Shown: positions 2,838-18,373 of the stretch, in pieces
How the letters are laid out: each line of letters opens with the position of its first letter
How positions within the stretch are numbered: the first letter of the stretch is position 1
Assembly: GCA_947372005.1 (NCBI GenBank)
Contig: CANBRV010000001.1
Coordinates: forward strand, 1-24,273
Reading direction: 5' to 3'
From: Comamonadaceae bacterium
GTDB lineage: Bacteria > Pseudomonadota > Gammaproteobacteria > Burkholderiales > Burkholderiaceae_C
DNA: 24,273 nucleotides
The notes under the pieces: generated by a model
Told to the model about the DNA's origin: nothing
Databases searched by the model: none
What the model saw: the letters and a program-made list of their open reading frames with translations, nothing else
Made by a program: the position numbers and the translations under genes

Positions 2838-3622
2838 TAAAAAAATTGCTCATCCGCTTGAGTGTTTTGATTTTGCTGGGCGTGCTGGCGTTGCAAGTTT
2901 TTTTTCTAGCGCGTATCTTGATGATGCGCTGGATAGCGCCCGAATCGACGAGCTTTGAGCGCAGCAGCGCTTATCAAATAGCAACTACAAAACCACAACC
3001 TTGGACATTTGGTTGGCGGCAAACGTGGGTGCCTTACGAGCAAATTAGCAAGAACCTCAAGCGCGCCATCATTGCCTCTGAAGATGCCAGCTTTACTGAC
3101 CACGACGGCGTGGACTGGGCAGCCATCGAAAAAGCGTGGGATAAAAATAAAAAAGCGGAAAAGCTAGCCGAAAAAAATAAGCCTAAATTCAGCTTGTTTG
3201 GCAAGAAGCCAGCGGCTAAGCCTGCACAAGCCGCACAAACAAAGCCTCCTAAGACAGTAGGCGGCTCTACCATTACGCAGCAACTGGCTAAAAACCTATT
3301 TTTAAGCGGCGAGCGAACCTATCTGCGTAAGGCGCAGGAATACGTATTGGTTGTCATGCTGGAGGCACTGCTCTCCAAAGAGCGTATCTTTGAAATTTAC
3401 CTTAACCATGTCGAGTGGGGTGAGGGCGTATTTGGCGCTGAAGCCGCGTCGCAGTACTACTTTCACAAAAGTGCAGCTAAGCTAGACGCATATCAGGCAT
3501 CGCTTTTGGCCGTGATGCTGCCGCGTCCTAAATATTTCGAACGCCGTATCCATACGTCTGAGTATTTACAAAACCAAGCAGGTACAGTGCAAGCCCGCAT
3601 GGGTGGCGTGGATATCCCTTAA
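2834..3622 (+). CDS. mtgA: Monofunctional biosynthetic peptidoglycan transglycosylase (GT51)
   Basis: GT51 motifs EDASF, GGSTITQQLAKNLFL, RKAQE, YLNHVEWG, FGAEAASQYYF and LAVMLPRP. ATGA overlap with the tonB stop. Confidence 0.95.
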   Translation: MIKKLLIRLSVLILLGVLALQVFFLARILMMRWIAPESTSFERSSAYQIATTKPQPWTFGWRQTWVPYEQISKNLKRAIIASEDASFTDHDGVDWAAIEKAWDKNKKAEKLAEKNKPKFSLFGKKPAAKPAQAAQTKPPKTVGGSTITQQLAKNLFLSGERTYLRKAQEYVLVVMLEALLSKERIFEIYLNHVEWGEGVFGAEAASQYYFHKSAAKLDAYQASLLAVMLPRPKYFERRIHTSEYLQNQAGTVQARMGGVDIP

Positions 3623-3629
3623 AAAATTT

Positions 3630-4376
3630 ATGAACATCATTCCAGACCCGTGGTTTTACGCTGCCGCCATTCCAGCGGCTATTTTGATGGGGCTTGGCAA
3701 GAGCGGCTTTGGCGGCGGACTTGGCTCTTTGGCTGTGCCGTTTATGGCGCTCACTATTACGGTGCCGCAAGCTGCCGCCATCATGATGCCACTGCTCCTT
3801 TTGGCTGACGTGATTGGTTTGCGTGTTTTTAGACGTGAGTACGATAAAAAATTACTGCGCTTTATGCTGCCCTTTGGATTGCTTGGCATTGCCATTGGCA
3901 CATTTCTATTTAAGCTCTTATCAAAAAATATGGTGGCTGGCTGCGTAGGCGCTTTTACGTTGTTATTTTTGGCGCAGCAGTTGTTGATAAAGCCGAAGGT
4001 GGGCGGTGCGCCGCCTCCGCGCTGGTTGGGCGCGATTTTGATCACAACCTCAGGTTTTACTAGCTTTATTTCTCATGCAGGAGCGCCGCCGTTTAATGCT
4101 TACGCCATCCCGCTCAAATTGAAGCCTGTGATCTTTGCTGCGACGGCTTCATACTTTTTCTTCTTTATCAATTTTGCTAAATGGGTGCCTTACGCCTACC
4201 TAGGTTTGTTAGATATGCAAAATTTTTGGACCTCTATGGTGTTGATGCCGTTTGCTGGTCTTGGTGTTTGGATTGGTCAACATGTGGCACGCAAAATTAA
4301 TACGGTGATGTTCTATCGATTGGTTTACTTAGGTATGTTTTTGAGCGGTAGCAAGCTTTTGTGGGATGCGTTTTAA
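3630..4376 (+). CDS. TauE/SafE-family sulfite exporter-like membrane protein (248 aa)
   Basis: GLGKSGFGGGLG, AAAIMMPLL, SGFTSFISHAGAPP and K-x-x-F-AATASYFFFFIN patterns with about 8 hydrophobic segments. ATG 3630 is preferred over 3603, which lies inside mtgA. Confidence 0.85.
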   Translation: MNIIPDPWFYAAAIPAAILMGLGKSGFGGGLGSLAVPFMALTITVPQAAAIMMPLLLLADVIGLRVFRREYDKKLLRFMLPFGLLGIAIGTFLFKLLSKNMVAGCVGAFTLLFLAQQLLIKPKVGGAPPPRWLGAILITTSGFTSFISHAGAPPFNAYAIPLKLKPVIFAATASYFFFFINFAKWVPYAYLGLLDMQNFWTSMVLMPFAGLGVWIGQHVARKINTVMFYRLVYLGMFLSGSKLLWDAF

Positions 4377-4394
4377 GCTGACAATGCAAGAGTC

Positions 4395-6437
4395 ATGATT
4401 GAGCTGAGCTACCTCCAACAAAATTACGAAGTACTAGCGAATACCTTCGCACAAAACCCATCGGCCTTTGCTATAGGGTTTTTTGCGGTGTACGTGCTCG
4501 TGACGGCGTTGTCACTTCCGCTTGCCACGCTGCTTACGCTCTTGGCTGGCGCTTTGTTTGGTTTCTTACCAGGCATGCTGTTGGTGTCATTTGCGTCGGC
4601 CATTGGTGCAACAGCTGCGATGCTAATTGCGCGTTTTGTTTTTTCGCGTTTGATTTTGCAAAGATTTGGCTCTTACCTAGAGACGATTAATCAAGGCATA
4701 GAAAAAGACGGTGCGTTTTATTTATTTGCCCTGCGGCTGACACCTGTTGCCCCGTTTTTTATAGTCAATCTGTTGATGGGGTTGACGAAGATTCACGCCT
4801 TCACTTTTTATTGGGTCAGTCAGATCGGCATGCTTGCTCTCAGCGCTGTGTATGTCAATGCTGGCACTCAGCTGAAGACGTTGACATCGCTGTCAGGCAT
4901 CGCTAGCCCCATGCTTTTAGGCTCATTGGCGCTGGCTGGCATTGCACCGTTGTTGCTTAAAAAAATGATGGCCTGGATGATGGCTGCACGAGCTAAGGCC
5001 AATATCTATAAGCCTTGGCAAGAGGCGCGCCCTAGATCTTTTGACCGCAACTTGATTGTGATTGGCGGCGGTGCTGGCGGTCTTGTGTCTGCCTATATTG
5101 CCGCCGCAGTTAAAGCCAAAGTGACGCTGATTGAGGCGCACAAAATGGGTGGCGATTGTTTGAACTACGGCTGCGTGCCTAGCAAGGCGCTCATTAAAAG
5201 CGCCAAGGTCGCGCATCAAATGCGCCACGCGTCTCGCTATGGTTTGCAAAATACGGAGACAGCGCTTAGCTTCAAAGCAGTGATGGCGCGTGTACATCGT
5301 GTGATTGCCGAGATTGAACCGCACGACAGCATTGAACGCTACACAAACTTGGGTGTAGAGGTGTTGCAAGGCTACGCAAAAATAGTGAATCCGTGGACGG
5401 TTGAGGTCGCACTAAGCAACGGAGGCAAGCAAACATTGACGGCACGTTCAATTGTGATTGCCACGGGGGCATCCCCTTTTGTACCGCCGCTTGCAGGCAT
5501 AGAAGCTTCAGGGTATTTGACCAGCGATACGTTGTGGGATGCGTTTGCGAAACTGGACGCAATCCCCAAGCGAATCACGATTCTTGGTGGTGGTCCGATC
5601 GGGTGCGAGCTCGCGCAAGCCTTGCAGCGCTTGGGCGCCACTGTGACACTCATCGAGCAAGGGGACCGCTTGTTAATCCGCGAGGACGCGGATGTGTCTA
5701 ACTTTGCAAAGGCGGCGTTAGAAGCGGACGGCGTGCGTGTACTCACCAATCACACCATTGATCTTGGTCACCCAGACTATGACGCGCTCATCGTCGCAGT
5801 GGGTCGCTCGGCAAGACTGGACGGCTATGGCTTAGAGGCGCTTGGCATACCTGTCCACAAGACAATTGAAACGAATGAGTACTTGCAAACCATCTACCCC
5901 AATATTTATGCCGCAGGCGATGTGGCGGGGCCATATCAGTTTACCCACGTGGCTGCACATCAGGCTTGGTACGCGGCAGTCAATAGCTTGTTTGGCGGCT
6001 TCAAAAAGTTCAAAGTTGATTACTCGGTTATTCCAAGCGCTACGTTTATTGACCCCGAGATTGCACGCGTGGGTTTGAGTGAGCAGGACGCAAAGGCGCA
6101 AGGCGTGGCTTACGAAGTCACCAAATATGGCATAGATGATTTAGATCGCGCGATTGCTGATAGCGCTGCCGAGGGCTTTGTCAAAGTGCTCACGGCGCCT
6201 GGTAAAGACAAAATTTTGGGCGTGACGATTGTGGGCAGCAACGCCGCAGAGTTACTCGCCGAATACGTGCTGGCCATGAAGTATGGCCTCGGTTTAAACA
6301 AAATTTTAGGCACGATTCACACCTACCCCACCTTCTCAGAAGCCAATAAATACGCGGCTGGCGAGTGGAAGCGGACGCATCAACCGACTCGCCTTTTAGC
6401 GTGGGTTAAACGCTTTCACGATTGGCGGCGGGGTTAG
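4395..6437 (+). CDS. Fusion of a DedA/VTT (TVP38/TMEM64, SNARE-associated) membrane domain with a class-I flavin disulfide oxidoreductase (LpdA/MerA-like)
   Basis: About the first 190 aa are hydrophobic, with LFALRLTPVAPFFIVNLLMGLT. These are followed by GGGAGG (FAD), redox CLNYGC (5157-5174), GGGPIGCE (NAD(P)H), IYAAGDVAGPYQFTH and HTYPTFSE. There is no MerA C-terminal Cys-Cys pair. Confidence 0.88.
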   Translation: MIELSYLQQNYEVLANTFAQNPSAFAIGFFAVYVLVTALSLPLATLLTLLAGALFGFLPGMLLVSFASAIGATAAMLIARFVFSRLILQRFGSYLETINQGIEKDGAFYLFALRLTPVAPFFIVNLLMGLTKIHAFTFYWVSQIGMLALSAVYVNAGTQLKTLTSLSGIASPMLLGSLALAGIAPLLLKKMMAWMMAARAKANIYKPWQEARPRSFDRNLIVIGGGAGGLVSAYIAAAVKAKVTLIEAHKMGGDCLNYGCVPSKALIKSAKVAHQMRHASRYGLQNTETALSFKAVMARVHRVIAEIEPHDSIERYTNLGVEVLQGYAKIVNPWTVEVALSNGGKQTLTARSIVIATGASPFVPPLAGIEASGYLTSDTLWDAFAKLDAIPKRITILGGGPIGCELAQALQRLGATVTLIEQGDRLLIREDADVSNFAKAALEADGVRVLTNHTIDLGHPDYDALIVAVGRSARLDGYGLEALGIPVHKTIETNEYLQTIYPNIYAAGDVAGPYQFTHVAAHQAWYAAVNSLFGGFKKFKVDYSVIPSATFIDPEIARVGLSEQDAKAQGVAYEVTKYGIDDLDRAIADSAAEGFVKVLTAPGKDKILGVTIVGSNAAELLAEYVLAMKYGLGLNKILGTIHTYPTFSEANKYAAGEWKRTHQPTRLLAWVKRFHDWRRG

Positions 6438-7264
6438 CCTAAGATGCGCCGAATCCAGTAACTCAGCGCATCCACCAGCACAACGAGTGCGAGCATTGCC
6501 AAGAGCACCGAGCTGGTCTCTGCCATTTGAAACAGGCTCATGTGGAACGACAGCATCGCGCCTAGCCCCCCTGCGCCGACTACGCCCAGCACAGCGGCTG
6601 CGCGGATATTGTTTTCCCAGCGGTAGAGCGTGTAGCTAATGAGCTGAGGCATGATTTGCGGCAGCGTAGCGTAGAAAAAAATCTTGAGTTCGCCGACGCC
6701 ACTCGTCCGCAAAGCCATAGCGGGTGAGCCCTCCGCGTTTTCTATTGCCTCAGCAAACAAGCGCCCGAGCACGCCACTGGTATGTAGCGCCAGCGCCAAC
6801 GTGCCCGCCATGGGCCCTAGTCCCGCTGCAATCAAAAGCAAGGTTGCCCATATCAATTCGGGAATGCTACGCAGCGCATTGAGCACCGCACGTGTGATGG
6901 TGCGAACTGCACCTCGGCCACTGGCAGGAAGTGCCAGCAACAGTCCGAGCACCACCGCAAGTAAGGTACCAAGTGCCGACATGGCGAGTGTCTCTAGAGT
7001 TGCCCACGACAGCTTGCTTAAAAAAGAACCTTCAAAATTTGGCGTTAGCAGTTCAGCGACAAAGCGCCCCATTTTTTGCATGGCATCGACTGACAAGAAC
7101 TTGCCCCACTGTAAATCTAGCGACCAAAAGCTAGCGATAGTGAGTAGCGCAATGAAGAGGACATACCAGCATGCTTTGCAGCGTGCACTCCAAAGCGGTG
7201 GAGGTAACTGAGCAGGCAATTGAGCAGCTAAGCGCTTGCGGGTCATGTCTGGTGTAGCTTTCAA
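6434..7264 (-). CDS. ABC transporter permease, PhnE/PtxC-like (second permease)
   Basis: LRSIPELIWA, GLGPMAGTLALALHTSGVLGRLFAEAIE (EAA loop) and YRWENNIRAAAVLGVVGAGGLG. Start is TTG 7264 (overlapping the upstream stop) or ATG 7246. Confidence 0.9.
   Translation of the reverse strand: MKATPDMTRKRLAAQLPAQLPPPLWSARCKACWYVLFIALLTIASFWSLDLQWGKFLSVDAMQKMGRFVAELLTPNFEGSFLSKLSWATLETLAMSALGTLLAVVLGLLLALPASGRGAVRTITRAVLNALRSIPELIWATLLLIAAGLGPMAGTLALALHTSGVLGRLFAEAIENAEGSPAMALRTSGVGELKIFFYATLPQIMPQLISYTLYRWENNIRAAAVLGVVGAGGLGAMLSFHMSLFQMAETSSVLLAMLALVVLVDALSYWIRRILG
7202..7225. repeat. 12-bp imperfect tandem duplication encoding AQLP-AQLP
   Basis: AGGTAACTGAGC (7202-7213) and AGGCAATTGAGC (7214-7225), 10 of 12 identical. 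Confidence 0.7.
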
Positions 7265-8109
7265 GACAGCCCCTCCCGAAAGCGGCTACTGGCGCGGTCT
7301 GCCAGCCACACTAAAAGCATAAATATGAGCAACATCGTGCTGACTTCAGAGCCATTAAACATCTTCATCGAGGCATCCATTTGTTGCCCAAGTCCGCCCG
7401 CGCCCACAAAGCCCAGCACAGCGGACGAACGAATCGCGCACTCCCAGCGGTAAACGGTGTAGCTCGTCAGTTCCGCCGCGCTTTGCGGGAGTAAGCCATA
7501 AAAAAATGCTTGCAAGCGACCTGTGCCATTGCGTAGCAAGCTGTGCGTGACGGTAGGATCGCTGGATTCCAAAATCTCGCCGTAAACCTTGCCCAGCATG
7601 CCCGTATAAGTGAGCGCAATTGCCAGCACGCCAGCCGTGGGCCCTAGCCCGACGACACGAACAAAGATCAGCGCCCAAATGAGTTCGGGCACGCTACGCA
7701 GCACAATCAGTAGCCAGCGTGTCGCAGTGCGAATCGCGCCTGAGCCAATTCCCATATGGCCTGCAAGCCCGCTGACGGATAGCACGCGTGCCGTAATGAG
7801 TGAAAGCGGAATTGCAACAATGAGCGCGAGCGCAATGCCCGCCGTTGCCATGGCGACCGTGCGCCAAGTCTCGCGTGCCACCATCAGCAAAAACTCAGGC
7901 TCTAATTTGGGTGGAAAAAAATCAGCTAAAAATTTGAGCGTGGGTTTCAAGCTCTCTGCGGAAAACAGCGTCCAAATTTTGAATTCCGTTAGCACCAGCA
8001 TCGGCCACAGCAGCACGGCGGCGACGGCGATCCAAAAGACGCGACCCAAAAAAGCAGGATCACGCACTGGCGCGTGAGCAGGATCACGGAGGGCCTTAGG
8101 TAAGCTCAT
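7261..8109 (-). CDS. ABC transporter permease, PhnE/PtxC-like (first permease, 282 aa)
   Basis: LRSVPELIWA, GLGPTAGVLAIALTYTGMLGKVYGEILE and YRWECAIRSSAVLGFVGAGGLG. ATG 8109 is preferred because residues 1-26 of the track ORF lie within the ATPase gene. Confidence 0.9.
   Translation of the reverse strand: MSLPKALRDPAHAPVRDPAFLGRVFWIAVAAVLLWPMLVLTEFKIWTLFSAESLKPTLKFLADFFPPKLEPEFLLMVARETWRTVAMATAGIALALIVAIPLSLITARVLSVSGLAGHMGIGSGAIRTATRWLLIVLRSVPELIWALIFVRVVGLGPTAGVLAIALTYTGMLGKVYGEILESSDPTVTHSLLRNGTGRLQAFFYGLLPQSAAELTSYTVYRWECAIRSSAVLGFVGAGGLGQQMDASMKMFNGSEVSTMLLIFMLLVWLADRASSRFREGLS
8053..8088. repeat. 12-bp perfect direct repeat (AGCAGGATCACG) with 24-bp period, encoding RDPA-HAPV-RDPA in the permease N-terminus
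   Basis: Copies at 8053-8064 and 8077-8088, read directly from the sequence. Confidence 0.85.
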
Positions 8110-8860
8110 CGAGATGCTGGGCATACAAATCTTGGAGCCGCTCGGGCGTGACCTGGCTTGTCGGCAAATCAAACGCCAGCTCGCCATTCTTCAATCCGAT
8201 GATGCGCGGAAAATGCGCAAGCGCCATCTGCACGTGATGTAGTGTTGCGACCAGTGTCACGCCGCGCGCCCTTGCGTTGCCTGTCAAAGTCTCGATGGCT
8301 TGAACAGCACGCGCTGGGTCAAGTGCAGACAGCGGCTCGTCAATTAACCACAGCTTGCTATCAGATACCAATCCTCTTGCAAGCCCCACCCGCTGGCGTT
8401 CACCGCCCGATAGTCTATCCACGCGCTCAAACAATTTATCGGCTAAATCAAATTGCGCTAGCGCCTGCTGCGCCGTTGGAATATCGACTGGATAAAACAA
8501 ACTGCGGAGGCTCGTCCAAAACCCCATGCGCGGCAATTGCCCCGCCAGCACGCTGGTGACGACGCGCTGTCGCGGCGGCAGGGGCGGTACTTGCGGCGCC
8601 AAAAATAAATCACCGCGAAGGCGTTGCAAATCATTTTTTGCAAGTTGCCACGGGTCGTGCTCATCCAACTTCAATGAGCCTGTCGCTGGAATCAAGGCAC
8701 ACGCCAGTAAGGAAAGCAGAGTCGTCTTGCCCGCACCAGAAGGGCCAATGACCGCAACTTTTTCGCCCGCATTTATGGTCAGCGTGATCGGCTGCAAAGC
8801 CAAGCTGGCTGAGGCTGCAGCGGGATGTCTGCCTGCTGCGGCGAGCAGTTCAATCTTCAT
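8096..8860 (-). CDS. ABC transporter ATP-binding subunit, PhnC-like
   Basis: Walker A GPSGAGKT, signature LSGGERQRV, Walker B/D-loop WLIDEPLSALD and H-loop LHH. Confidence 0.93.
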   Translation of the reverse strand: MKIELLAAAGRHPAAASASLALQPITLTINAGEKVAVIGPSGAGKTTLLSLLACALIPATGSLKLDEHDPWQLAKNDLQRLRGDLFLAPQVPPLPPRQRVVTSVLAGQLPRMGFWTSLRSLFYPVDIPTAQQALAQFDLADKLFERVDRLSGGERQRVGLARGLVSDSKLWLIDEPLSALDPARAVQAIETLTGNARARGVTLVATLHHVQMALAHFPRIIGLKNGELAFDLPTSQVTPERLQDLYAQHLDELT

Positions 8861-8868
8861 TTTGAACG

Positions 8869-9711
8869 TTACTTAATCAAACCCGCGCTACGGCCAGCTG
8901 CTTCAATGCCTTTGTAGTTGTCCGCCTTGGTGGGAATAAACCGCGTCGCACGTTGCAAGTCCAAAATCGATTTTCCTTCAGACGTATTCGCGTTTAAATC
9001 CAAAAATGCTTTGGTCAGTTTCTCGCGCAGGGCGGCGGGCATGTCGGCGTGGACTGTCCAGTTGTAATCAAAGTAGGCGGGCGTGGTGTAGAACACGTTA
9101 ACTTTGCTTGCATCCACTTTTTTGTCTGCCACAAACTTATCCCACACAGAGATATTGAGCGCACCCGCATCGACCTTGCCTGCGGCTACGGCTGCAATAG
9201 TGGCATCGTGTGCGCCCGAAAACGCCACGCGTTTGAGGTCAGTATCAGGATTGATTTTTGCATCCAACAAAAACTTGCGCGGCATCAAATGCCCCGAGGT
9301 GCTGGAGGCCGAACCGAAGGACAGCGTATGGCCTTTGAGGTCAGCGAGTGTTTTGATCGTGGGGTCGCTGGTGATAAATACAGAGCGAAATTTCTCGTCT
9401 TCTTCGCGCTGCACAAGCGGAATCATCTTGCCACCCGAGCGGATATTGGCTTGCACAAAAGTAAAACCGCCAAACCATGCTAAATCGATTTGCTTGTTGG
9501 CAAGCGCCTCGACTGATGCAGCGTAGTCGGACACGGGCGTGAACTCGACCTTCATTCCTAATTTAGTTTCAAGATATTTCACCAGCGGCGCGGCCTTACG
9601 GGCGAGTTCGGTGGGCGACTCGTCGGGGATGGCGGTGACTTTAAAAACAGCTTGCGCTGATACACCGAAAGCACAGAGAGAGAGAAGCAGTGCAGATAAA
9701 AATTTCAACAT
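8869..9711 (-). CDS. Periplasmic substrate-binding protein of the PhnD/PtxB superfamily, resembling the SelD-linked 'putative selenate ABC transporter' clade
   Basis: Sec signal peptide MLKFLSALLLSLCAFGVSA, AIPDESPTEL, DLAWFGGFTFVQA, oxyanion-binding SSTSGHLMP, SGAHDA and YFDYNW. SD-like AAGGGA lies upstream. The clade is assigned from recalled family sequence and gene context. Confidence 0.85.
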   Translation of the reverse strand: MLKFLSALLLSLCAFGVSAQAVFKVTAIPDESPTELARKAAPLVKYLETKLGMKVEFTPVSDYAASVEALANKQIDLAWFGGFTFVQANIRSGGKMIPLVQREEDEKFRSVFITSDPTIKTLADLKGHTLSFGSASSTSGHLMPRKFLLDAKINPDTDLKRVAFSGAHDATIAAVAAGKVDAGALNISVWDKFVADKKVDASKVNVFYTTPAYFDYNWTVHADMPAALREKLTKAFLDLNANTSEGKSILDLQRATRFIPTKADNYKGIEAAGRSAGLIK

Positions 9712-9735
9712 GAAAAATCCCTTAAAAATAACAGT

Positions 9736-10788
9736 CTATTTTCCACAACTTCTAAACCCTGCAAAAATATCTGTCCGATCGGGCGTAAAAAAGTTTCGAT
9801 ACTTGGGATGCACCATACGCGCCGACGTAGCAATCGATGCGCCGCGTAAGACTTTGCGCGAGCCAAACCATGGCTCAGAATAGTCTTTATACGCATGTGC
9901 CGTAAAGCTAGGGTACGGCTCGAATGTGCTGTCTGTCCACTCCCACACCTCGCCCCACTTGAAATTTGAGTTAGACATTGCGGAGCATTCCCACTCAGCC
10001 TCACTGGGCAATCGCCTGTCAGCCCAATCGCACCAAGCCTTAGCATCAAACCAATTGATGTGAACAGCTGCATCGTTTGGGTTCCCCACGAGACGCGGCA
10101 TCTCGCGGCCCGTCGCCCGTGCAAACGGCAAATACTCGGCCCACGTGACGACTCGCGAATCAATCTCAAAAGCAGGTAATGCGACTTCGTGCTGCGAGAG
10201 TTCGTTGTCGAACGCAAAGCCCTCATTTGTGGAACCCAACCACCACTTGCCCTCTGGCATAGATAGGCTGGACTTCGTCGGCTGCTTTGACTTGGAAGCC
10301 ATACGTAGCAAGGTTTGCGGGACAGGCACATTTAAAAACTCTGCTGAATAAATGGCCGCTTCCGCGTGCATGTCTTCGTGAAAAAGCACGAGGCGATAAA
10401 AGTACAGCGTTTCGTCAGAATCCGTTTTTTCTGCTGCAAGTTTGGTGAGAATGTCGTCCAGACTGACTTGCATCAGCGCCTTGGTTTGCTCAAAGGTTGG
10501 CAGCGGTAAATCCCAGCGCGTGTCGTGCGGGACGTGGCTTGAGTCATATAGCACGTCGTATGCAAGTAAATCATGAAAGCCGCGCCAAGTTTGTGGACAT
10601 AGCCAGTGATCGGCAAACCACGCGATGTGTCCGAGTTCCCATAGCGGCGGGTTGAGCGTTGCAAGCCTTGGCACGGTGAGCGACTCGCCAAGCGCTGCTG
10701 CGTAAGCATCTGCCAGTGTCATCGTACGAGCACGCGCTTGGCGTAGCATGTGGGCAAGTTCGGCGGCACTGGCGGTTCGGGCATTCAT
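9736..10788 (-). CDS. senA: Selenoneine synthase SenA-like non-heme iron enzyme (DinB-2 plus FGE-sulfatase domains, 350 aa)
   Basis: LNPPLWELGHIAWF, YDSSHVPHDTRWDLPLP, iron motif FHEDMHAE and C-terminal WGEVWEWT...DYSEPWFG...YRNFFTPDRTDIFAGFRSC match my recollection of Variovorax SenA rather than EgtB. senB and selD are in the same locus. Start is ATG 10788 or GTG 10797. Confidence 0.85.
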   Translation of the reverse strand: MNARTASAAELAHMLRQARARTMTLADAYAAALGESLTVPRLATLNPPLWELGHIAWFADHWLCPQTWRGFHDLLAYDVLYDSSHVPHDTRWDLPLPTFEQTKALMQVSLDDILTKLAAEKTDSDETLYFYRLVLFHEDMHAEAAIYSAEFLNVPVPQTLLRMASKSKQPTKSSLSMPEGKWWLGSTNEGFAFDNELSQHEVALPAFEIDSRVVTWAEYLPFARATGREMPRLVGNPNDAAVHINWFDAKAWCDWADRRLPSEAEWECSAMSNSNFKWGEVWEWTDSTFEPYPSFTAHAYKDYSEPWFGSRKVLRGASIATSARMVHPKYRNFFTPDRTDIFAGFRSCGK

Positions 10789-10800
10789 GCCGTGCACTGT

Positions 10801-10838
10801 AATGTATGGGCCAATTGTGCGACGAAGATGTGTACATT
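10801..10838. promoter_or_regulatory. Candidate divergent promoter region with mirrored TACATT (-10-like) hexamers
   Basis: AATGTA at 10801-10806 (TACATT on the minus strand, facing senA) and TACATT at 10833-10838 (plus strand, facing egtB). No convincing -35 element. Confidence 0.3.
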
Positions 10839-10861
10839 CATTTTTATTCAGGAAATTCCCC

Positions 10862-12163
10862 TTGAGTCCTACCGAATTTGTTAGCGTTTACCGCGCCGTC
10901 AGAGCGCAAAGCCTAGAGCTCACAGCGCACCTAAGCCTCGAAGACATGGCCTTGCAATCCATGCCCGACGCCAGCCCGACCAAATGGCATTTGGCGCACA
11001 CGACTTGGTTTTTTGAAGTCGTGGCGCTTAAAAAATGGCATGCAGACTATGAAGGCTTTAATATCGCCTATGCGTATTTGTTTAACTCGTACTACGAAGC
11101 GCTAGGCGATCGTCAACCGCGTCCGCTACGCGGCATATTGTCGCGCCCCGCCTTGATGGACGTGTTGGCGTATCGCGAACGAGTCGATAACGCCTTGCAG
11201 GACTGGCTACAAAAGGTGAGCCCATCCGATTGGATACAAGCGCAGCCCTTGCTGGTGCTGGGCTTACACCACGAGCAGCAGCACCAAGAACTCATCGTCA
11301 CAGATATGCTGCATCTCTTGGCGCAAAACCCGCTCTTGCCAACATGGTCGCCGCCCTCTATCAGGCGTGCACAACAGTCGTCTGTGCCACTTTCATCTGC
11401 ACCGCTTGCGTGGCTAGAGCACGCTGGTGGCGTGCAGATGGTAGGTACGAACGAGCAGGCGGGCGTCTTTGCATTTGACAACGAGTGTCCCAATCACCCC
11501 GTATGGATTGAGCCGTTTGCCATAGCGAATCGCTTAGTTAATTGCGGCGAATACCTCACCTTTATGGAGGACGGCGGTTATGAGCGGCCAGAATTTTGGT
11601 TATCGGAAGGCTGGGCACGTGTGCAGCAGGACGACTGGCATGCGCCGCTCTATTGGGTGAGTGCGAGTGATAAACGTCTTGATTTTTGCACCGAGACAAG
11701 CCAAGCGCAGCAAGGCTTAGCAAGCGATTGGTCTGTGTATGGCGTGCACGGTTTGCAGACTTTACAAGCGCATGAAGCCGTAACGCATCTGAGCTTTTAT
11801 GAAGCCAGTGCCTACGCGGCTTGGGCGGGTGCTAGGCTGCCAACCGAATTTGAGTGGGAAGTGCTAGCCCAAGCGCAGCAAGGCGCAGCGAGCAGCGACA
11901 GCCTGCAAGATTTATACGGAGTGGCTTGGCAGTGGACACGCTCGTCATACGATCCCTATCCGCACTTCAAGCCCATGACGGGCGAGGTTGCCGAGTACAA
12001 CGGCAAGTTCATGGTCGGGCAATTGGTGCTGCGTGGGTCGAGCGCTTTCACGCCGCTTGAACCCTTCGCGCATACCAGGGCGACTTATCGCAATTTCTTT
12101 CCACCTGCTGCGCGATGGCAATGCACAGGACTTCGTTTGGCCAAGGACAAGAGCACGTTATGA
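10862..12163 (+). CDS. egtB: Ergothioneine sulfoxide synthase EgtB, type-II-like (433 aa)
   Basis: QSMPDASPTKWHLAHTTWFFE, LFNSYY loop (11081-11095), iron motif HHEQQHQE, FAFDNE, YNGKFM and RATYRNFF...RWQCTGLRLA. TTG 10862 has AGGAAA 6 nt upstream. The track start at 10748 overlaps senA and is unlikely. Confidence 0.9.
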   Translation: MSPTEFVSVYRAVRAQSLELTAHLSLEDMALQSMPDASPTKWHLAHTTWFFEVVALKKWHADYEGFNIAYAYLFNSYYEALGDRQPRPLRGILSRPALMDVLAYRERVDNALQDWLQKVSPSDWIQAQPLLVLGLHHEQQHQELIVTDMLHLLAQNPLLPTWSPPSIRRAQQSSVPLSSAPLAWLEHAGGVQMVGTNEQAGVFAFDNECPNHPVWIEPFAIANRLVNCGEYLTFMEDGGYERPEFWLSEGWARVQQDDWHAPLYWVSASDKRLDFCTETSQAQQGLASDWSVYGVHGLQTLQAHEAVTHLSFYEASAYAAWAGARLPTEFEWEVLAQAQQGAASSDSLQDLYGVAWQWTRSSYDPYPHFKPMTGEVAEYNGKFMVGQLVLRGSSAFTPLEPFAHTRATYRNFFPPAARWQCTGLRLAKDKSTL

Positions 12164-13125
12164 ACCCCACGATCGATATAGAAGTACAGGCCCACAATTT
12201 CGCGACCGACATGCAGGCGGCGCTTGCAAGCGCTAGCAAACAAATCTCACCCAAGTATTTTTATGACGCCAAGGGTTCGCTGCTGTTCGATCAAATTTGT
12301 GAACTGCCCGAGTACTACCCCACGCGCACCGAATGGGCGGTGCTTGAGCAATACGCGCCGCAGATGGCTGAGTGTTTGGGGGCAGATATTGATTTAATTG
12401 AGTTTGGCGCAGGTTCGCTGCGCAAAGTGCGGTTGTTGTTGGATGCTTTAATGGCGCAAAAAACGCCACCTAAAAGCTATGTGCCCATCGACATTTCGGG
12501 CGCGCATTTGGCCGAATCCAGCTTGCAATTGCAAAAGCAATATCCAGCGCTGGGCGTCACGACGTGGGTGTCGGATTATTCGCAGGCCTTAGTGCTGCCG
12601 CCCGCACTAATGCAGGCCAATCGTCGCCGCATGGGATTCTTCCCAGGATCGAGCTTGGGCAACTTTGCACCCGGCGAGGCGCTTGCTTTTATGACCCAAG
12701 CTGCGCAGATGCTTGGCGGCGGCGGTCTGCTGGTGGGCGTCGATTTGGTGAAAGATCCACAAGTACTGCATGCCGCTTACAACGACCAACAAGGCATCAC
12801 GGCTGCGTTCAATTTGAACTTGCTTGCCCGTGCCAATCGCGAGTTAGGTGCTGACTTTGATCTGAATGCATTTGCGCATTACGCTTTTTATGAGCCGCGG
12901 CACCAGCGAATCGAAATGCATTTGCAAAGTCTTCGCGCACAGCACGTGCGGCTGCTCGGGCAGACTTATTCGTTTCGTGAGGGCGAGACCTTGCATACCG
13001 AAAACTCCTACAAATACACGCTGGACAGCTTGCACCAATTAGCCAAGCAGGCAGGCTTTGAGGTGGGTATACATTGGACGGACAGCCAGCAACAGTTTTG
13101 TGTGCAGTGGCTTATCGCTCCCTAG
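12160..13125 (+). CDS. egtD: L-histidine N-alpha-trimethyltransferase EgtD (321 aa)
   Basis: ISPKYFYDAKGSLLFDQICELPEYYPTRTE, IEFGAGS, FFPGSSLGNF, GVDLVKD, AYND..GITAAFNLNLL and HTENSYKYT. ATGA overlap with the egtB stop fixes the start at 12160. Confidence 0.95.
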   Translation: MNPTIDIEVQAHNFATDMQAALASASKQISPKYFYDAKGSLLFDQICELPEYYPTRTEWAVLEQYAPQMAECLGADIDLIEFGAGSLRKVRLLLDALMAQKTPPKSYVPIDISGAHLAESSLQLQKQYPALGVTTWVSDYSQALVLPPALMQANRRRMGFFPGSSLGNFAPGEALAFMTQAAQMLGGGGLLVGVDLVKDPQVLHAAYNDQQGITAAFNLNLLARANRELGADFDLNAFAHYAFYEPRHQRIEMHLQSLRAQHVRLLGQTYSFREGETLHTENSYKYTLDSLHQLAKQAGFEVGIHWTDSQQQFCVQWLIAP

Positions 13126-13157
13126 CACGGTCATTTTTAAATTTTTTGGAGAACAAC

Positions 13158-14594
13158 ATGACAACTCATCGCTGTGACGCACTCATCATTGGCGCGGGAC
13201 AAGCCGCTCCCGCTTTAGCTGTAGCCTTGGCAGGCAGGGGTGAAAAAGTTATTTTGGTGGAAGGCAACCAACTGGGCGGCACGTGCGTGAATGTAGGCTG
13301 CACGCCCACCAAGACGCTGCGTAAAAGTGCGCGCGTGGCTTACATGGCAAGACGCGGCGCAGAGTTTGGCGTCAACACCGGCGCAGTCACGATTGATTTT
13401 GCCAAGGCGATGGACAGGATGCATGAGCGAGTGAACGCTTCGCGCACAGGGCTAGAAGGCTGGCTTGCTAATACCCCTAATGTCACCGTGCTACGCGGCT
13501 GGGGGTCTCTTGCAGGCCATACAGGACAAGGTTTTCAGGCCGTTGTTGATGGCAAGGGTGAGCAGCAGCACATTATGGCAGCTCGTGTGTATTTGAATAC
13601 AGGCACTCGCCCCCTCATGCCACCGATTGAAGGATTGGACAAGCCCGACGCACGCATCTTGAACAACGAGAGCTTGCTGCAATTGCGCGAATGCCCCAAG
13701 CATTTATGCATTTTGGGCGGCAGCTACATTGGCTTAGAGTTTGCGCAAATTTTTAGGCGCTTGGGCGCCGAGGTCACGGTGATTGAACCCAGCCACCGCA
13801 TCGCCATGCGCGAAGACGAAATCGTCACGAATGCCATTACCGATTTTCTGCGGGAAGAAGGCGTGCAGATTTTGACCAGCACCACGCTTGAGAGGGTCGA
13901 TGGCGCTGGCAGCGATTTGCAGCTGCACGTACAAACCAAAAATGCGGACTACAGCTTGCAGACCAACATTCATAAGGCTTCCCACTTACTGGTGGCGACG
14001 GGGCGCTTGCCCAATACAGAGCGATTAAACCTTGCTTCCATTGGTTTGCCAGTCGATGCTCGCGGCTATTTGGATGTGAATGGCCAATTGGAAACGGCCG
14101 TGGCGGGCGTGTGGGCGCTGGGCGATATCAACAAACGCGGTGCGTTTACGCACACCAGCTATCACGACTTTGAAATCGTGCGGGACAACTTAAAAGAGCC
14201 GAACGCCTTGCGCAGTGCCGATGACCGTGTCACGGCGTACGCCATGTTTACCGATCCGCCGCTAGGTCGCGTGGGGCTCAGCCGCTCCGCAGCCAAGGCC
14301 GAGAGCGACAAGTCGGGCAGGCAGTTTTTAATTGCCGAGCACCACATGCGCTTTGTCAGCCGCGCTAAAGAGGAAAGCGAAACGCATGGTGTGATTCAGT
14401 TTATTGTGGACGCGAAGACGGAAAGCTTTGTGGGTGCAACGGTGCTGGGCATCAATGGCGACGAGATCATTCAAGTGGTGAGCAACTACATGGCCACGGG
14501 CGCAAGCTACAAGCTGATGCGCAATTGCTTACCTGTGCATCCGACGGTGACCGAATTCTTCCCCACGATATTGGATAAGCTAGCGGCACTATGA
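13158..14594 (+). CDS. Soluble class-I flavin disulfide oxidoreductase (MerA/LpdA/RclA-like, 478 aa), substrate unknown
   Basis: IIGAGQA (FAD), redox CVNVGC (13284-13301), GGSYIGLE, VWALGD..FTHTS and HPTVTE. GGAG SD lies before ATG 13158. There is no MerA N-terminal metal domain or C-terminal Cys-Cys pair. Confidence 0.88.
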   Translation: MTTHRCDALIIGAGQAAPALAVALAGRGEKVILVEGNQLGGTCVNVGCTPTKTLRKSARVAYMARRGAEFGVNTGAVTIDFAKAMDRMHERVNASRTGLEGWLANTPNVTVLRGWGSLAGHTGQGFQAVVDGKGEQQHIMAARVYLNTGTRPLMPPIEGLDKPDARILNNESLLQLRECPKHLCILGGSYIGLEFAQIFRRLGAEVTVIEPSHRIAMREDEIVTNAITDFLREEGVQILTSTTLERVDGAGSDLQLHVQTKNADYSLQTNIHKASHLLVATGRLPNTERLNLASIGLPVDARGYLDVNGQLETAVAGVWALGDINKRGAFTHTSYHDFEIVRDNLKEPNALRSADDRVTAYAMFTDPPLGRVGLSRSAAKAESDKSGRQFLIAEHHMRFVSRAKEESETHGVIQFIVDAKTESFVGATVLGINGDEIIQVVSNYMATGASYKLMRNCLPVHPTVTEFFPTILDKLAAL

Positions 14595-15586
14595 ATCCAC
14601 CGCGTCCGCACATCGTTATCGTCAGTCCCGCGCTTTCGGACGCGAACAATGGCAATTGGCAAACCGCGAATCGCTGGCGGCAAATGCTGGCCAAAAATTT
14701 CCACTGCCGTATTGTTCAAACATGGCCGGATAAATTTGCCAATCAAGACAACGTAATGATCGCGCTGCATGCCCGCAAGTCGGCTGATTCGATCGCGGCT
14801 TGGCACGCGGCGCATGGCGGCTCGCGCCTCGTGCTGGCGCTGACGGGAACGGATCTCTATCGCGATATTCAAACGAACGCCGCCCCCAAGGCCTCATTGG
14901 CTATGGCTTCGCGTCTCATCGTGCTGCAAGAGCTTGCACCGCTTGGCTTGCCAGAGGTGTGCCGCGCGAAGGCCGAAGTGATCTTTCAATCGACCACAAA
15001 CCAGCCCACACATCTGAAACCAGCGGCGCATTTGAGAGCCGTAATGGTGGGGCATTTGCGAAGCGAGAAATCACCCGAGACTTTGTTTGCTGCGGCCAAA
15101 CTTTTAAATGCGGATGACCCTATCTTCATTGATCACATCGGCGCAGGGCTGGATGCTGATTTGGCAAAGGCGGCCGAAGCGACGGCCAGCGCCTGTCCGC
15201 ATTACCGCTGGCTGGATTCGATGCCGCATGAAACCACGCGCCGAGCCATCCAACGTGCGCATGTGCTGGTACACGCCAGCAAGATGGAAGGCGGTGCGCA
15301 TGTGCTCATGGAGGCGGTGTGCTCGGGCACGCCTGTGCTGGCGTCGCGCATCGACGGCAATGTGGGCATGCTCGGCGCAGATTACGCGGGCTATTTTGAT
15401 TGGGGTGATGCGGCAGGATTGGCGCGGTTATTGCGCGAGTGCCGAGCTAGTCAAAATGACGAAAACGGTCTACTGGCAAGACTTGGCGAGCAATGCACAC
15501 TGCGTGCACCGCTGTTTGCACCAGAGGCTGAGAGTGCTAAATTAAATGCTCTTGTAAATTCCCTAGTTATTGCGCTGTTAGAGTAG
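14591..15586 (+). CDS. senB: Selenosugar synthase SenB (GT-B glycosyltransferase, TIGR04348-like)
   Basis: IVIVSPALSDANNGNWQTANRW, ALHARKSA, LTGTDLYRDI, VMVGHLRSEKSP, SKMEGGAHVLMEA and SRIDGNVGMLG closely match my recollection of Variovorax SenB. Directly upstream of selD. Confidence 0.92.
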   Translation: MNPPRPHIVIVSPALSDANNGNWQTANRWRQMLAKNFHCRIVQTWPDKFANQDNVMIALHARKSADSIAAWHAAHGGSRLVLALTGTDLYRDIQTNAAPKASLAMASRLIVLQELAPLGLPEVCRAKAEVIFQSTTNQPTHLKPAAHLRAVMVGHLRSEKSPETLFAAAKLLNADDPIFIDHIGAGLDADLAKAAEATASACPHYRWLDSMPHETTRRAIQRAHVLVHASKMEGGAHVLMEAVCSGTPVLASRIDGNVGMLGADYAGYFDWGDAAGLARLLRECRASQNDENGLLARLGEQCTLRAPLFAPEAESAKLNALVNSLVIALLE

Positions 15587-15590
15587 ATGG

Positions 15591-17915
15591 ATGCAAGCAT
15601 CTGATCAACCTATTCTTCGAGACATTGTCTTAGTTGGCGGCGGACACAGTCACGTGGTCGCGCTAAAAAGCTTTGCCATGAAACCCATGGTTGGCGTGCG
15701 TCTCACCGTGATTTGCACCGACACGCACACGCCCTACTCGGGTATGTTGCCCGGCTATGTGGCGGGACATTACGACTACGACGCTGTGCATATTGATCTT
15801 GGCAAGCTTTGCGCTTTTGCGGGCGCGCGGCTTTACACGGCGCAAGTGACGGGCATTGACCGCGTGGCAAAAAAGGTGATGTGCAAAGGCCGCCCTGATG
15901 TGGCTTACGACGTGCTGTCCATCAACATTGGATCGAGCCCGCAAGTGCACAGCGTGCCGGGAGCCAATGAATACGCAATCCCCGTCAAACCCATCGCGCA
16001 ATTTAACGAGCGCTGGCTCGCATTACTCGCGCGTAGTGAATCGCCTCTGAGCGTTGCCGTGGTAGGTGGCGGCGCGGGTGGCATAGAGCTTTTGCTAGCA
16101 ATGCAGCACCGAATCAAAAACGCGAGCTTCAGTTTGTTTACCGAAGGCACGGCGATACTGCCAACGCACCATCAGGCTGTGCAAAAACGGTTCATGCAGG
16201 TGCTGGCCGATCGCGACGTGTCGGTTCATTTGAATACACCTGTGACCCAGCTGACGATGCAAGGAAGTCGTCATCAACTCCATAGCAAAACCGAGCAGTT
16301 TTCGTTCGAGGAAGTAATGTGGGTCACGCAAGCGGGCGGTGCTGCGTGGCTTGCGGATACTGGGCTAGCGCTCGATCCTCGCGGTTTTATTGAAGTGAAC
16401 GATTGCCTTCAATCGACAGCGGATGCAAACATTTTTGCCGCAGGTGATATCGCGAACATGGTGAATCACAAGCTGGAGAAGGCGGGTGTGTTTGCGGTGC
16501 GGCAAGGCATGCCGCTGGCGGAGAATTTGCAGCGTAGCGTGCAAGGTGTGGCGCTGAAACCGTATCGTCCACAAAGGCGTTGGCTGGCTTTGATTAGCAC
16601 GGGCGACAAGCAAGCGGTAGCTTCACGCGGCGCGCTTTGGGGATCCGCAACGAAGCTTGGCATGGGCGGCGCAAATGCAAGCGGTGCACTCCTTTGGCGC
16701 TGGAAAGATTGGATCGATCAGCGATTTATGCGTCGCTTCTCCGAGTTTCCTGCGATGGATGAATTAGCCCGTAAGCCACACCCTATAAGGCTTGCAGCAG
16801 GGGCATCTATCAAGCTCACTTCCGAAGAATCACTGCAAGCCATCTCCGCCATTGCCATGCGCTGCGGCGGCTGCGGCGCAAAAGTGGGCGCGACGGTGCT
16901 CTCGCGGGCGCTGGGCAGCCTGTCACCGATTGAACGAGATGATGTGCTGATTGGCTTGCACGCACCCGACGACGCGGCGGTGGTGCGCGTTCCTGCTGGC
17001 AAGGCGATGGTGCACACCGTCGATTTTTTCCGCGCCTTTATCGACGACCCCTACATCTTTGGTCGCGTCGCGGCTAATCATGCACTCGGTGACATCTTTG
17101 CGATGGGTGGCACGGCGCAGTCTGCGACCGCCATTGCCACCGTGCCGCCTGGGCTGGAAGCCAAGGTGGAAGCTACTTTGCGCGACATGATGGCGGGCGC
17201 GGTGGAAGTGCTGAACGCCGCGGGCTGTGCGCTGGTGGGCGGTCACACGGGCGAAGGCAAAGAGTTGGCGTTAGGCTTTGCGATCAATGGACTCGTCGAT
17301 ATTGCGAGTGACGGAATCACACTGCCGCGCACCATGACCAAGGGCGCAATGAAGGCGGGCGATGTGCTCCTCCTCACTAAACCCATGGGCACGGGCACGC
17401 TGTTTGCGGCGCTGCCAAAAGGCAAAGCGAAAGGGCGCTGGATTGATGCGGCGCTTGCCTCGATGCAGCAATCGAACCAAGCGGGAGCCGTATGTTTGTT
17501 GGCTCACGGGGCCACGGCGTGTACCGACCTCACGGGCTTTGGCTTACTCGGGCACTTGGTTGAAATGACGAAGCCATCAGGTGTAGATGCTGAAATTAAT
17601 CTCGCTGCTTTGCCGCTTTTGGATGGTGCGGAAGAGTGCGTTAAAGCAGGGATTACCAGCTCGTTGCAAAGCGCCAATGTGCGGTTGCGCCGAGCGATCA
17701 AAAATCAAGAGGCATTTATCAATCACCCCAGATACCCACTCATTTTTGATCCACAAACGGCGGGTGGTTTGCTAGCGAGTGTGCCCGTAAGCCATGTGGA
17801 TGCTTGCGTGGCGGAGTTGAAAGCGCTGGGCTATACGCACACGGCGATCATTGGGCGCATCTTACCGATGGGTGATGCGGTGGAAGCGATTACTTTAATA
17901 GGAGAGACACCATGA
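15591..17915 (+). CDS. selD: Selenophosphate synthetase SelD/SenC fused to an N-terminal pyridine nucleotide-disulfide/NADH-dehydrogenase-like flavoprotein domain
   Basis: N-terminal LVGGGHSHV, PYSGMLPG, VVGGGAGGIE, IFAAGD and KAGVFAVRQG. The SelD part has MRCGGCGAKVG (16857-16889), PDDAAV, HTVDFF, NHALGDIFAMGG, LVGGHT, TDLTGFGLLGHL and DPQTAGGLL. Confidence 0.95.
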   Translation: MQASDQPILRDIVLVGGGHSHVVALKSFAMKPMVGVRLTVICTDTHTPYSGMLPGYVAGHYDYDAVHIDLGKLCAFAGARLYTAQVTGIDRVAKKVMCKGRPDVAYDVLSINIGSSPQVHSVPGANEYAIPVKPIAQFNERWLALLARSESPLSVAVVGGGAGGIELLLAMQHRIKNASFSLFTEGTAILPTHHQAVQKRFMQVLADRDVSVHLNTPVTQLTMQGSRHQLHSKTEQFSFEEVMWVTQAGGAAWLADTGLALDPRGFIEVNDCLQSTADANIFAAGDIANMVNHKLEKAGVFAVRQGMPLAENLQRSVQGVALKPYRPQRRWLALISTGDKQAVASRGALWGSATKLGMGGANASGALLWRWKDWIDQRFMRRFSEFPAMDELARKPHPIRLAAGASIKLTSEESLQAISAIAMRCGGCGAKVGATVLSRALGSLSPIERDDVLIGLHAPDDAAVVRVPAGKAMVHTVDFFRAFIDDPYIFGRVAANHALGDIFAMGGTAQSATAIATVPPGLEAKVEATLRDMMAGAVEVLNAAGCALVGGHTGEGKELALGFAINGLVDIASDGITLPRTMTKGAMKAGDVLLLTKPMGTGTLFAALPKGKAKGRWIDAALASMQQSNQAGAVCLLAHGATACTDLTGFGLLGHLVEMTKPSGVDAEINLAALPLLDGAEECVKAGITSSLQSANVRLRRAIKNQEAFINHPRYPLIFDPQTAGGLLASVPVSHVDACVAELKALGYTHTAIIGRILPMGDAVEAITLIGETP

Positions 17916-18373
17916 CTAAAAAAACGTTCGAAAATCTATCCGATCTCACAGCTTTTGTCGGCCAAGAAATTGCGGGCGGCGATTGGCTCACCATTACGCA
18001 AGAGCAGGTGAATCTATTTGCCGACGCGACGGGCGATCACCAGTGGATTCACGTCAACCCCGAGTTAGCTGCCAAGGGGCCGTTTAAGACCACCATTGCA
18101 CATGGTTTTTTAACGCTGTCGCTGCTGCCGACATTTTTTGAATCCAGCTTTTCTATTACCAACTCGCGCATGGGCGTGAACTATGGTTTGAACAAAGTGC
18201 GCTTCACCTCGCCCGTGCCTGTGGGCTCGCGTCTGCGTGCTGCAATGAAACTGCTCGCGCTCGACCCTATCGACAACAGCGGCGTGCAGATGACGTGGCT
18301 GGTGACGGTTGAGCGCGAGGGCTCGGACAAGCCCGTGTGCATTGCGGAGTCGTTGGTGAGGCGCTATCCTTAA
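17912..18373 (+). CDS. MaoC/NodN-like hot-dog-fold dehydratase
   Basis: FADATGDHQWIHV, TTIAHGFLTLSLL and NYGLNKVRFTSPVPVGSRLR. ATGA overlap with the selD stop. Confidence 0.9.
   Translation: MTKKTFENLSDLTAFVGQEIAGGDWLTITQEQVNLFADATGDHQWIHVNPELAAKGPFKTTIAHGFLTLSLLPTFFESSFSITNSRMGVNYGLNKVRFTSPVPVGSRLRAAMKLLALDPIDNSGVQMTWLVTVEREGSDKPVCIAESLVRRYP

Follow-up and report, generated by a model that had tools for sequence, protein, structure and literature searches.

Introduction

The core pathway of selenoneine synthesis is already known from the senABC genes of Variovorax paradoxus, and an importer and egtD were noted beside sen clusters in the same work, with no mention of reductases (Kayrouz 2022, 10.1101/2022.04.13.486033). 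Here we describe a sen locus from a freshwater-type member of the Comamonadaceae. It lies in the window, that is, the whole stretch of 24,273 nucleotides analysed (contig CANBRV010000001.1 of assembly GCA_947372005.1), which is one entire contig of a 2.1-Mb, 78% complete metagenome-assembled genome (MAG) whose closest relatives are Comamonadaceae. Compared with senABC of V. paradoxus, SenC is here a flavoprotein::SelD fusion and the only SelD of the cell, a cassette of egtB, egtD and a reductase gene stands between senA and senB, and there is no sen-type egtD such as relatives have.

Two further bodies of work are close to this locus. The in vitro chemistry of SenA ends in selenoxide-derived species that need a reductant (Kayrouz 2022), and in the published in vitro reconstitution dithiothreitol (DTT) does the final reduction. 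A table of families encoded within 5 kb of NHISS (EgtB/SenA/OvoA-type) genes lists EgtD (69.9%), SenB (8.1%), DUF427 (5.7%), 'Lpd/PRK06370 (pyruvate dehydrogenase E3)' (4.0%), ABC_peri_selen (3.1%) and PhnE (3.1%), and gives no interpretation of the Lpd/PRK06370 flavoprotein (JACS 2026, Table 1). SelD itself is found fused to other domains, and the NADH-dehydrogenase-like::SelD protein is the most frequent of these fusions and the one with the most scattered distribution (Zhang 2008; Mariotti 2015, PMC4561486). Its N-terminal domain is of the TIGR03169 family, its SelD is of the Cys type, and its domain order is that found in the window.

Results

A block between two backbone genes

Gene identities were obtained from an open reading frame (ORF) listing and from Pfam and NCBIfam scans of the window proteins with curated cut-offs. 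All genes named in an earlier note on this DNA, which took them for one dedicated and self-contained selenium system, were found present and intact. We consider it probable that the locus is instead a mosaic, composed of a sen cluster with its importer, an egtB-egtD-reductase cassette and backbone genes.

The backbone can be followed in two genomes of the same genus, G484 and G336, that have no SenB, EgtB or EgtD. The gene order in G484 is rnb-tonB-mtgA-dedA::FDR-selD(fused), where FDR denotes a flavoprotein disulfide reductase, and dedA::FDR and selD are directly adjacent. G336 has the order mtgA-tauE-dedA::FDR, then three further genes, then selD(fused)-maoC-trmL-comF-bioC. From this synteny, positions 6434-15586 of the window are a block with a backbone gene on either side. 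The presence of TauE, DedA::FDR, fused SelD and MaoC does not depend on that of sen (all four in G336, DedA::FDR and SelD also in G484). The three genes at the sen-block site of G336 (L160, 9374-12471) encode an unrelated ROK kinase and DNA cytosine methyltransferase (dcm), together with an unknown ORF, which suggests that the dedA::FDR-selD site is an insertion hot spot.

The egtB-egtD-reductase cassette

The cassette occupies the plus strand. It starts with the sulfoxide synthase EgtB (10862-12163; TIGR03440, 470.8 bits vs. a cut-off of 360), whose ORF is open from 10748 and whose likely start is a TTG at 10862 preceded by AGGAA. The histidine trimethylase EgtD follows (12115-13125; TIGR03438, 401.7 bits vs. 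290.9), and then a stand-alone flavoprotein disulfide reductase at 13158-14594, for which alone we use the unqualified label FDR below. Identities to the products of egtB-egtD-DUF427-FDR operons were 51-53% for EgtB, 55-60% for EgtD and 58-62% for FDR, and all three window proteins were most similar to operons of the Ramlibacter/Caenimonas type. The window EgtD was only 39-46% identical to the sen-type EgtD, the gene of which lies between those of the binding protein and SenA in relatives. As all three genes are closest to one operon type and EgtD is unlike its sen-type counterpart, they behave as one cassette, now joined to senB. All five FDR homologues sampled at 55-62% identity were likewise encoded in egtB-egtD-DUF427-FDR operons.

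The Ramlibacter/Caenimonas operons keep the same order of egtB, egtD and the FDR gene as the window. They differ in having DUF427 and a downstream 2-oxoglutarate (2OG)-Fe oxygenase gene, neither of which is in the window cassette, while the latter is joined to senB-senC, with no C-S lyase in view. The 2OG-Fe(II) oxygenase (PF10014) was seen 3′ of the FDR gene in several egtB-egtD-DUF427-FDR operons (L088, L138-L140). Another such operon (L141, 1-2329) is divergent from an OpuAC-type ATP-binding cassette (ABC) transporter resembling the ergothioneine importer EgtUV. Literature searches on DUF427 with ergothioneine gave nothing beyond the JACS 2026 table.

The EgtD and EgtB of the locus were the only ones found in the genome. 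Hercynine for the sulfur branch (EgtB) and for the selenium branch (SenA) therefore comes from the single EgtD of the cassette, and the idea that one EgtD serves both enzymes was borne out.

Linkage of the FDR clade to egt and sen genes

FDR has the Pfam domains Pyr_redox_2, Pyr_redox and Pyr_redox_dim, a CxxxxC pair (CVNVGC) and a His-Glu dyad (HPTVTE), and by this domain and motif content is a class-I flavoprotein disulfide reductase of the PRK06370 type. Its nearest solved structures are 6kgy/6kod (1e-69) and also 8ajj/8ajk, which we take to be RclA and Har-type enzymes. Like RclA and Har, it combines the class-I fold with a single CxxxxC pair and a C-terminal His-Glu, and has no extra C-terminal cysteine pair. 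It differs from them in scoring far below both equivalog cut-offs and in the location of its gene inside thio/selenohistidine operons. No NCBIfam equivalog cut-off was reached (MerA 282/454, RclA 305.8/740, hypothiocyanous acid reductase Har 275.9/650), and by these cut-offs FDR falls outside the MerA, RclA and Har families. A conserved extra cysteine was considered and dropped, as Cys485 is limited to the closest relatives.

Members of the FDR clade were found beside egtB/egtD or senA/senB in five gene orders, all within Comamonadaceae: egtB-egtD-DUF427-FDR; FDR-Mo-oxidoreductase-FNR-like-egtB-egtD; FDR-egtB-egtD; senA|FDR-senB-senC with unrelated flanks; and the order of the window. The fourth belongs to a 79% homologue, the gene of which again overlaps senB. 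A family sample of 300 Comamonadaceae genomes contained FDR homologues of at least 51% identity in eight genomes, at nine places, four of which had the order FDR-(Mo-oxidoreductase-FNR-like)-egtB-egtD or FDR-egtB-egtD. The sister species G588 and locus L084 keep FDR with sen and have no EgtB, so that FDR is retained with the selenium branch too. Adjacency to sen was limited to four closely related loci (at least 79% identity).

A tree separated the linked FDR group from a clade of 40-46% identity with 100/100 support. None of the members of the latter adjoined an egt or sen gene in the order or phylum sample, and the linked and unlinked proteins show fixed differences, e.g., two lysines replaced by methionines at positions 113 and 116. 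An extension of the linkage to the wider family was rejected: none of the order-level homologues (42-56% identity, 22 genomes) or phylum-level homologues (40-57%, 17 places) adjoins egt or sen genes, and one lies 5 kb from a sen cluster.

The 4.0% entry for Lpd/PRK06370 in JACS 2026 is independent support for the FDR linkage, and the statement that there was no record of the extra genes is to that extent outdated. No publication describing a reductase for ergothioneine or selenoneine came up in literature searches. In three loci (L111, L113 and L116, ~9400-10800), egtB-egtD comes after the FDR gene and two others, one for a small molybdopterin oxidoreductase (Oxidored_molyb, sulfoxide-reductase kind) and one for an FNR-like flavin reductase, which gives three redox enzymes in one ergothioneine operon.

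The selenoneine core and the importer

SenA (9736-10797, minus strand; likely start ATG 10788) exceeds the NF041186 cut-off by a small margin (421.1 vs. 420 bits), and a stretch of ~36 residues of the V. paradoxus enzyme is absent. It matches two solved structures of V. paradoxus SenA, 8ryz and 8k5i (1e-90), and the alignment to 8ryz shows that equivalents of the iron-triad residues His71, His167 and His171, of Tyr363 and of Asn395 are kept. The gene, short and with a two-piece model match, was considered as a pseudogene; this was ruled out, as the catalytic residues are intact and relatives are equally short. Compared with the sister genome, identity is only 70% for SenA, against 85-96% for the flanking genes. 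As read from the sequences, this low identity and the replaced egtD hint at recombination around senA-egtB.

The selenosugar synthase SenB (14591-15586, plus strand) matches TIGR04348 over model positions 1-309 of 310 (415.5 bits vs. 300). SenC (15591-17915, plus strand) is a TIGR03169::SelD fusion (TIGR03169, 475 bits vs. 310; TIGR00476, 282 bits vs. 125), with the flavoprotein domain at ~15621-16739 and SelD at ~16857-17789. The SelD part carries the motif CGGCGAK, with the predicted catalytic Cys and Lys, and is of the Cys type. The fusion is the sole SelD found in the MAG, where selU is present elsewhere and selA was not found in the 78% recovered. Because it is the sole SelD and selU is also present, the fused SenC serves as the general (housekeeping) SelD of the cell.

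The importer genes lie on the minus strand. They encode a periplasmic binding protein with a signal peptide from the TIGR04553 family, named 'putative selenate ABC transporter' in NCBIfam (8869-9711; 414 bits, 413.9 before rounding, vs. a cut-off of 250), a PhnC-type ABC ATPase (8096-8860; PF00005; TIGR02315 181 bits, under the cut-off of 266) and two PhnE-type permeases, namely permease 1 (7261-8187; TIGR01097, 203 bits) and permease 2 (6434-7264; TIGR01097, 252 bits). The ORF of permease 1 overlaps phnC, and its true start is probably downstream of 8187.

We compared these genes with 80 SenB loci, all from Betaproteobacteria, 41 of which extend over at least 18 kb. Among the latter, EgtD was present in 30, SenA in 29, the binding protein in 26, fused SenC in 26, the full importer in 22, EgtB in 8, DedA::FDR in 5, and FDR and TauE in 1 each. 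The usual architecture has phnE-phnE-phnC-binding protein leftward, egtD rightward, senA leftward and senB-senC rightward. The co-occurrence check proposed in the earlier note thus upheld the PhnD-type importer as a companion of sen, and did not uphold TauE, DedA::FDR or FDR as dedicated sen accessories. The link between importer and sen is solid and already known (Kayrouz 2022; also the NCBIfam name). The substrate of the importer is probably a selenium oxyanion, judging from the co-occurrence of the families; literature searches turned up no characterised TIGR04553 ligand.

Nine loci (L015, L022, L028, L036, L051, L057, L069, L071, L078) have egtD-senB-senC and no SenA homologue within 10 kb, some of them with DedA::FDR immediately upstream. 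They may represent a sen variant in which another enzyme forms the C-Se bond; alternatively, senA could be encoded at a different site of the genome.

DedA::reductase and the TIGR03169 domain

The left border of the block is formed by a fusion of a DedA/VTT domain with a class-I flavoprotein disulfide reductase (4395-6437, plus strand; Pfam VTT_dom, Pyr_redox_2, Pyr_redox_dim; CLNYGC). This DedA::FDR is under all NCBIfam equivalog cut-offs (MerA 346 vs. 454) and has no C-terminal cysteine pair. An order sample of 300 Burkholderiales genomes, in which DedA::FDR, TIGR03169 and SenB were counted, contained DedA::FDR in 92 genomes. Both DedA::FDR and TIGR03169 were present in 82, DedA::FDR only in 10, TIGR03169 only in 17 and neither in 191 (odds ratio ~92), and the two were at most 10 kb apart in 38 of the 82 genomes with both.

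The usual neighbours of DedA::FDR are ArsS, GT2, DUF2064 and DUF3047 (loci L118-L137). TIGR04283/TIGR04282 'arsenosugar' glycosyltransferases and/or DUF3047 flanked 14 of 20 sampled loci, 7 of the 20 also had a stand-alone TIGR03169-type flavoprotein, and ArsS (TIGR04167) was within 4 kb in 5/5 genomes checked. The usual home of the DedA::FDR/TIGR03169 pair is thus an ArsS radical SAM-DedA::FDR-GT2-DUF2064-DUF3047 cluster, of which both flavoproteins are regular members; literature searches found no paper describing it. In the window, by comparison, the two flavoproteins stand on either side of sen genes and have a tie to SelD, and searches of the genus turned up neither ArsS nor the glycosyltransferases.

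An alignment of 21 fused and stand-alone homologues showed that the SelD-fused TIGR03169 domain has no CxxxxC and no invariant cysteine. A disulfide reductase function of this domain was ruled out, as there is no conserved cysteine pair. To the described NADH-dehydrogenase-like::SelD fusions our data add this lack of a conserved cysteine in the N-domain and the co-inheritance of its stand-alone homologues with DedA::reductase, in ArsS-type clusters. Three loci (L054, L066, L137) have an unfused, divergent SelD (~35% identity) as SenC and a stand-alone TIGR03169 a few kb downstream, beside DedA::FDR. This arrangement may be the precursor state of the SelD fusion.

DedA::FDR was within 6 kb of SenB in 7/80 loci, in several arrangements and Comamonadaceae genera. 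It was also found in 39 of the 194 SenB-negative genomes of the order sample. The order-sample odds ratios with SenB were ~4 for DedA::FDR and ~7 for FDR-like proteins.

Flanking genes and operon layout

The TauE/SafE-family (TSUP) anion permease (3603-4376, plus strand; PF01925, 100 bits) occurs in 1/80 SenB loci, and it is the sister genome alone that has it beside sen; sen-less G336 has it in the same backbone position. On these grounds it was rejected as a member of the sen system, and 'exporter' is no more than its Pfam family name. The MaoC-like hydratase (17912-18373, plus strand; PF01575), which overlaps the senC stop, is 91-99% identical in relatives including G336, was present in 2/80 SenB loci and was rejected on synteny as a local neighbour only. 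The sister species G588 (L001/L109) keeps tauE, the importer, sen-type egtD, senA, FDR and senB. The fused SenC has been lost there (~1 kb remains between senB and maoC), as has the reductase domain of DedA::FDR, and a plain SelD is on another contig.

The block and its right border form two divergent operons, senA-binding protein-phnC-phnE-phnE on the minus strand and egtB-egtD-FDR-senB-senC-maoC on the plus strand. The likely senA and egtB starts are ~65-75 bp apart, and the AT-rich DNA between them (10798-10861), as read from the sequence, is a putative divergent control region. ATGA overlaps mark the FDR/senB and senC/maoC junctions. A scan of the window against Rfam gave no match, and promoter and terminator scans gave fewer matches in the window than in shuffled sequence.

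Discussion

According to the reading that we prefer, SenA, SenB and the SelD-type SenC are the known selenoneine pathway, which draws on hercynine, a UDP-sugar and selenophosphate, and the TIGR04553 PhnDCEE-type importer, probably co-transcribed with senA, would bring in a selenium oxyanion. The egtB-egtD-reductase cassette, related to the Ramlibacter/Caenimonas operons, would have been inserted between senA and senB, and the whole block lies between dedA::reductase and TIGR03169::selD, a co-inherited flavoprotein pair. FDR itself may act as an NAD(P)H flavoprotein that, with its one redox-active cysteine pair, reduces the oxidised product to the thione or selone. Its substrates could be the acid, sulfenic or selenenic, that remains once the C-S or C-Se bond has been cut, or else the disulfide or diselenide. 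EgtE-type cleavage leaves a sulfenic acid, and RclA/Har-type enzymes reduce small oxidised sulfur species. As the wider link of FDR is with egtB-egtD, the linkage points to product redox chemistry, not to selenite reduction, and we think it more likely that FDR reduces oxidised ergothioneine or selenoneine than that it reduces selenite.

The one dedicated selenium system of the earlier note, with selenite or selenate imported by the ABC transporter, reduced to selenide for SelD by the flavoproteins, and TauE as exporter or detoxifier, we regard as improbable. Its core genes and importer stand, the latter being linked to sen, and glutathione and thioredoxin reductases do reduce selenite adducts. 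In the genus, the pair of DedA::FDR and TIGR03169 is joined to SelD by fusion or adjacency, DedA::FDR recurs close to SenB, and the odds ratios with SenB point the same way. However, the accessory genes do not follow: TauE is nearly absent from SenB loci and present without sen, DedA::FDR is found in SenB-negative genomes, usually in ArsS/GT2/DUF2064/DUF3047 clusters, and in sen-less G336 and G484, and G588 keeps sen though its DedA::FDR has lost the reductase domain. The flavoprotein fused to SelD stands beside DedA::reductase in the sen-less relatives too, which makes it backbone. As to FDR, its association with thio/selenohistidine genes was upheld and selenite reduction was not, the wider linkage being with egtB-egtD operons in loci that have no sen genes. 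'Self-contained' is also too strong for a locus with no C-S lyase (EgtE) and no regulator.

FDR might also be a general RclA/Har-type stress enzyme (reactive chlorine, hypothiocyanite, copper), merely co-regulated with its neighbours and not acting on ergothioneine or selenoneine. RclA and Har are among its higher NCBIfam scores, several members of the clade have no egt or sen neighbour, and the authors of JACS 2026 did not single out the Lpd/PRK06370 family; yet both scores are far under their cut-offs, five gene orders keep FDR in egt or sen operons, with an overlap with senB, and the linked clade differs at fixed positions, so that we hold this to be rather unlikely. The DedA::reductase could in turn be the leftover of an ArsS-type cluster beside selD, with no role in selenium metabolism. 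Its usual flanking genes, the proximity of ArsS, the failure to find the remaining cluster genes in the genus and the deleted reductase domain in G588 agree with this, whereas the domain with which it is co-inherited forms a fusion with SelD, it directly adjoins selD in G484, and several genera of the Comamonadaceae have it beside sen clusters; we give this explanation a minor share of the probability. DedA::FDR is thus not a sen accessory, and its pairing with the SelD-fused domain leaves a role in selenium handling possible, including the handling of reduced metalloid upstream of SelD. A bolder version of our reading can be put forward tentatively, in which the FDR clade is a dedicated bacterial ergothioneine/selenoneine reductase that uses NAD(P)H and, separately, DedA::reductase and TIGR03169 form a membrane-associated module that hands reduced metalloid to SelD (selenium) or to ArsS-type enzymes (arsenic).

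Several points weigh against the mosaic and the role that we ascribe to FDR. The window has no DUF427, which such cassettes usually include, and the present arrangement may reflect either insertion of the sen block into the backbone or its loss from the sen-less relatives. The co-occurrence counts are uncorrected for relatedness between genomes, and the statements on the only SelD or EgtD in the genome are provisional, given a MAG that is 78% complete. The egt/sen linkage of FDR is confined to part of the Comamonadaceae (8/300 family genomes, 0/17 phylum-sample homologues), and members of the clade with neither neighbour exist (L110/L086, L114, L115, L117, L089, L142). As the closest solved relative, RclA, is a stress enzyme, the linkage could stem from shared regulation with antioxidant genes, with no direct action on the product, and the roles of the flavoproteins in selenium and ergothioneine metabolism are predicted from the genes.

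We know of no account of how bacteria regenerate oxidised ergothioneine or selenoneine, or of what takes the place of DTT in vivo after SenA or EgtE. For this question, the locus and related ones point to a specific enzyme clade, that of FDR, and the tie of this reductase clade to egt and sen operons is the most valuable lead from this work. The DedA::reductase/TIGR03169 pair comes second. Two genes taken for selenium accessories, the DedA::reductase and the N-domain of SelD, are reassigned to a wider pair shared with arsenic-type clusters, and their pairing offers a way into the SelD fusion, which has long lacked an explanation.

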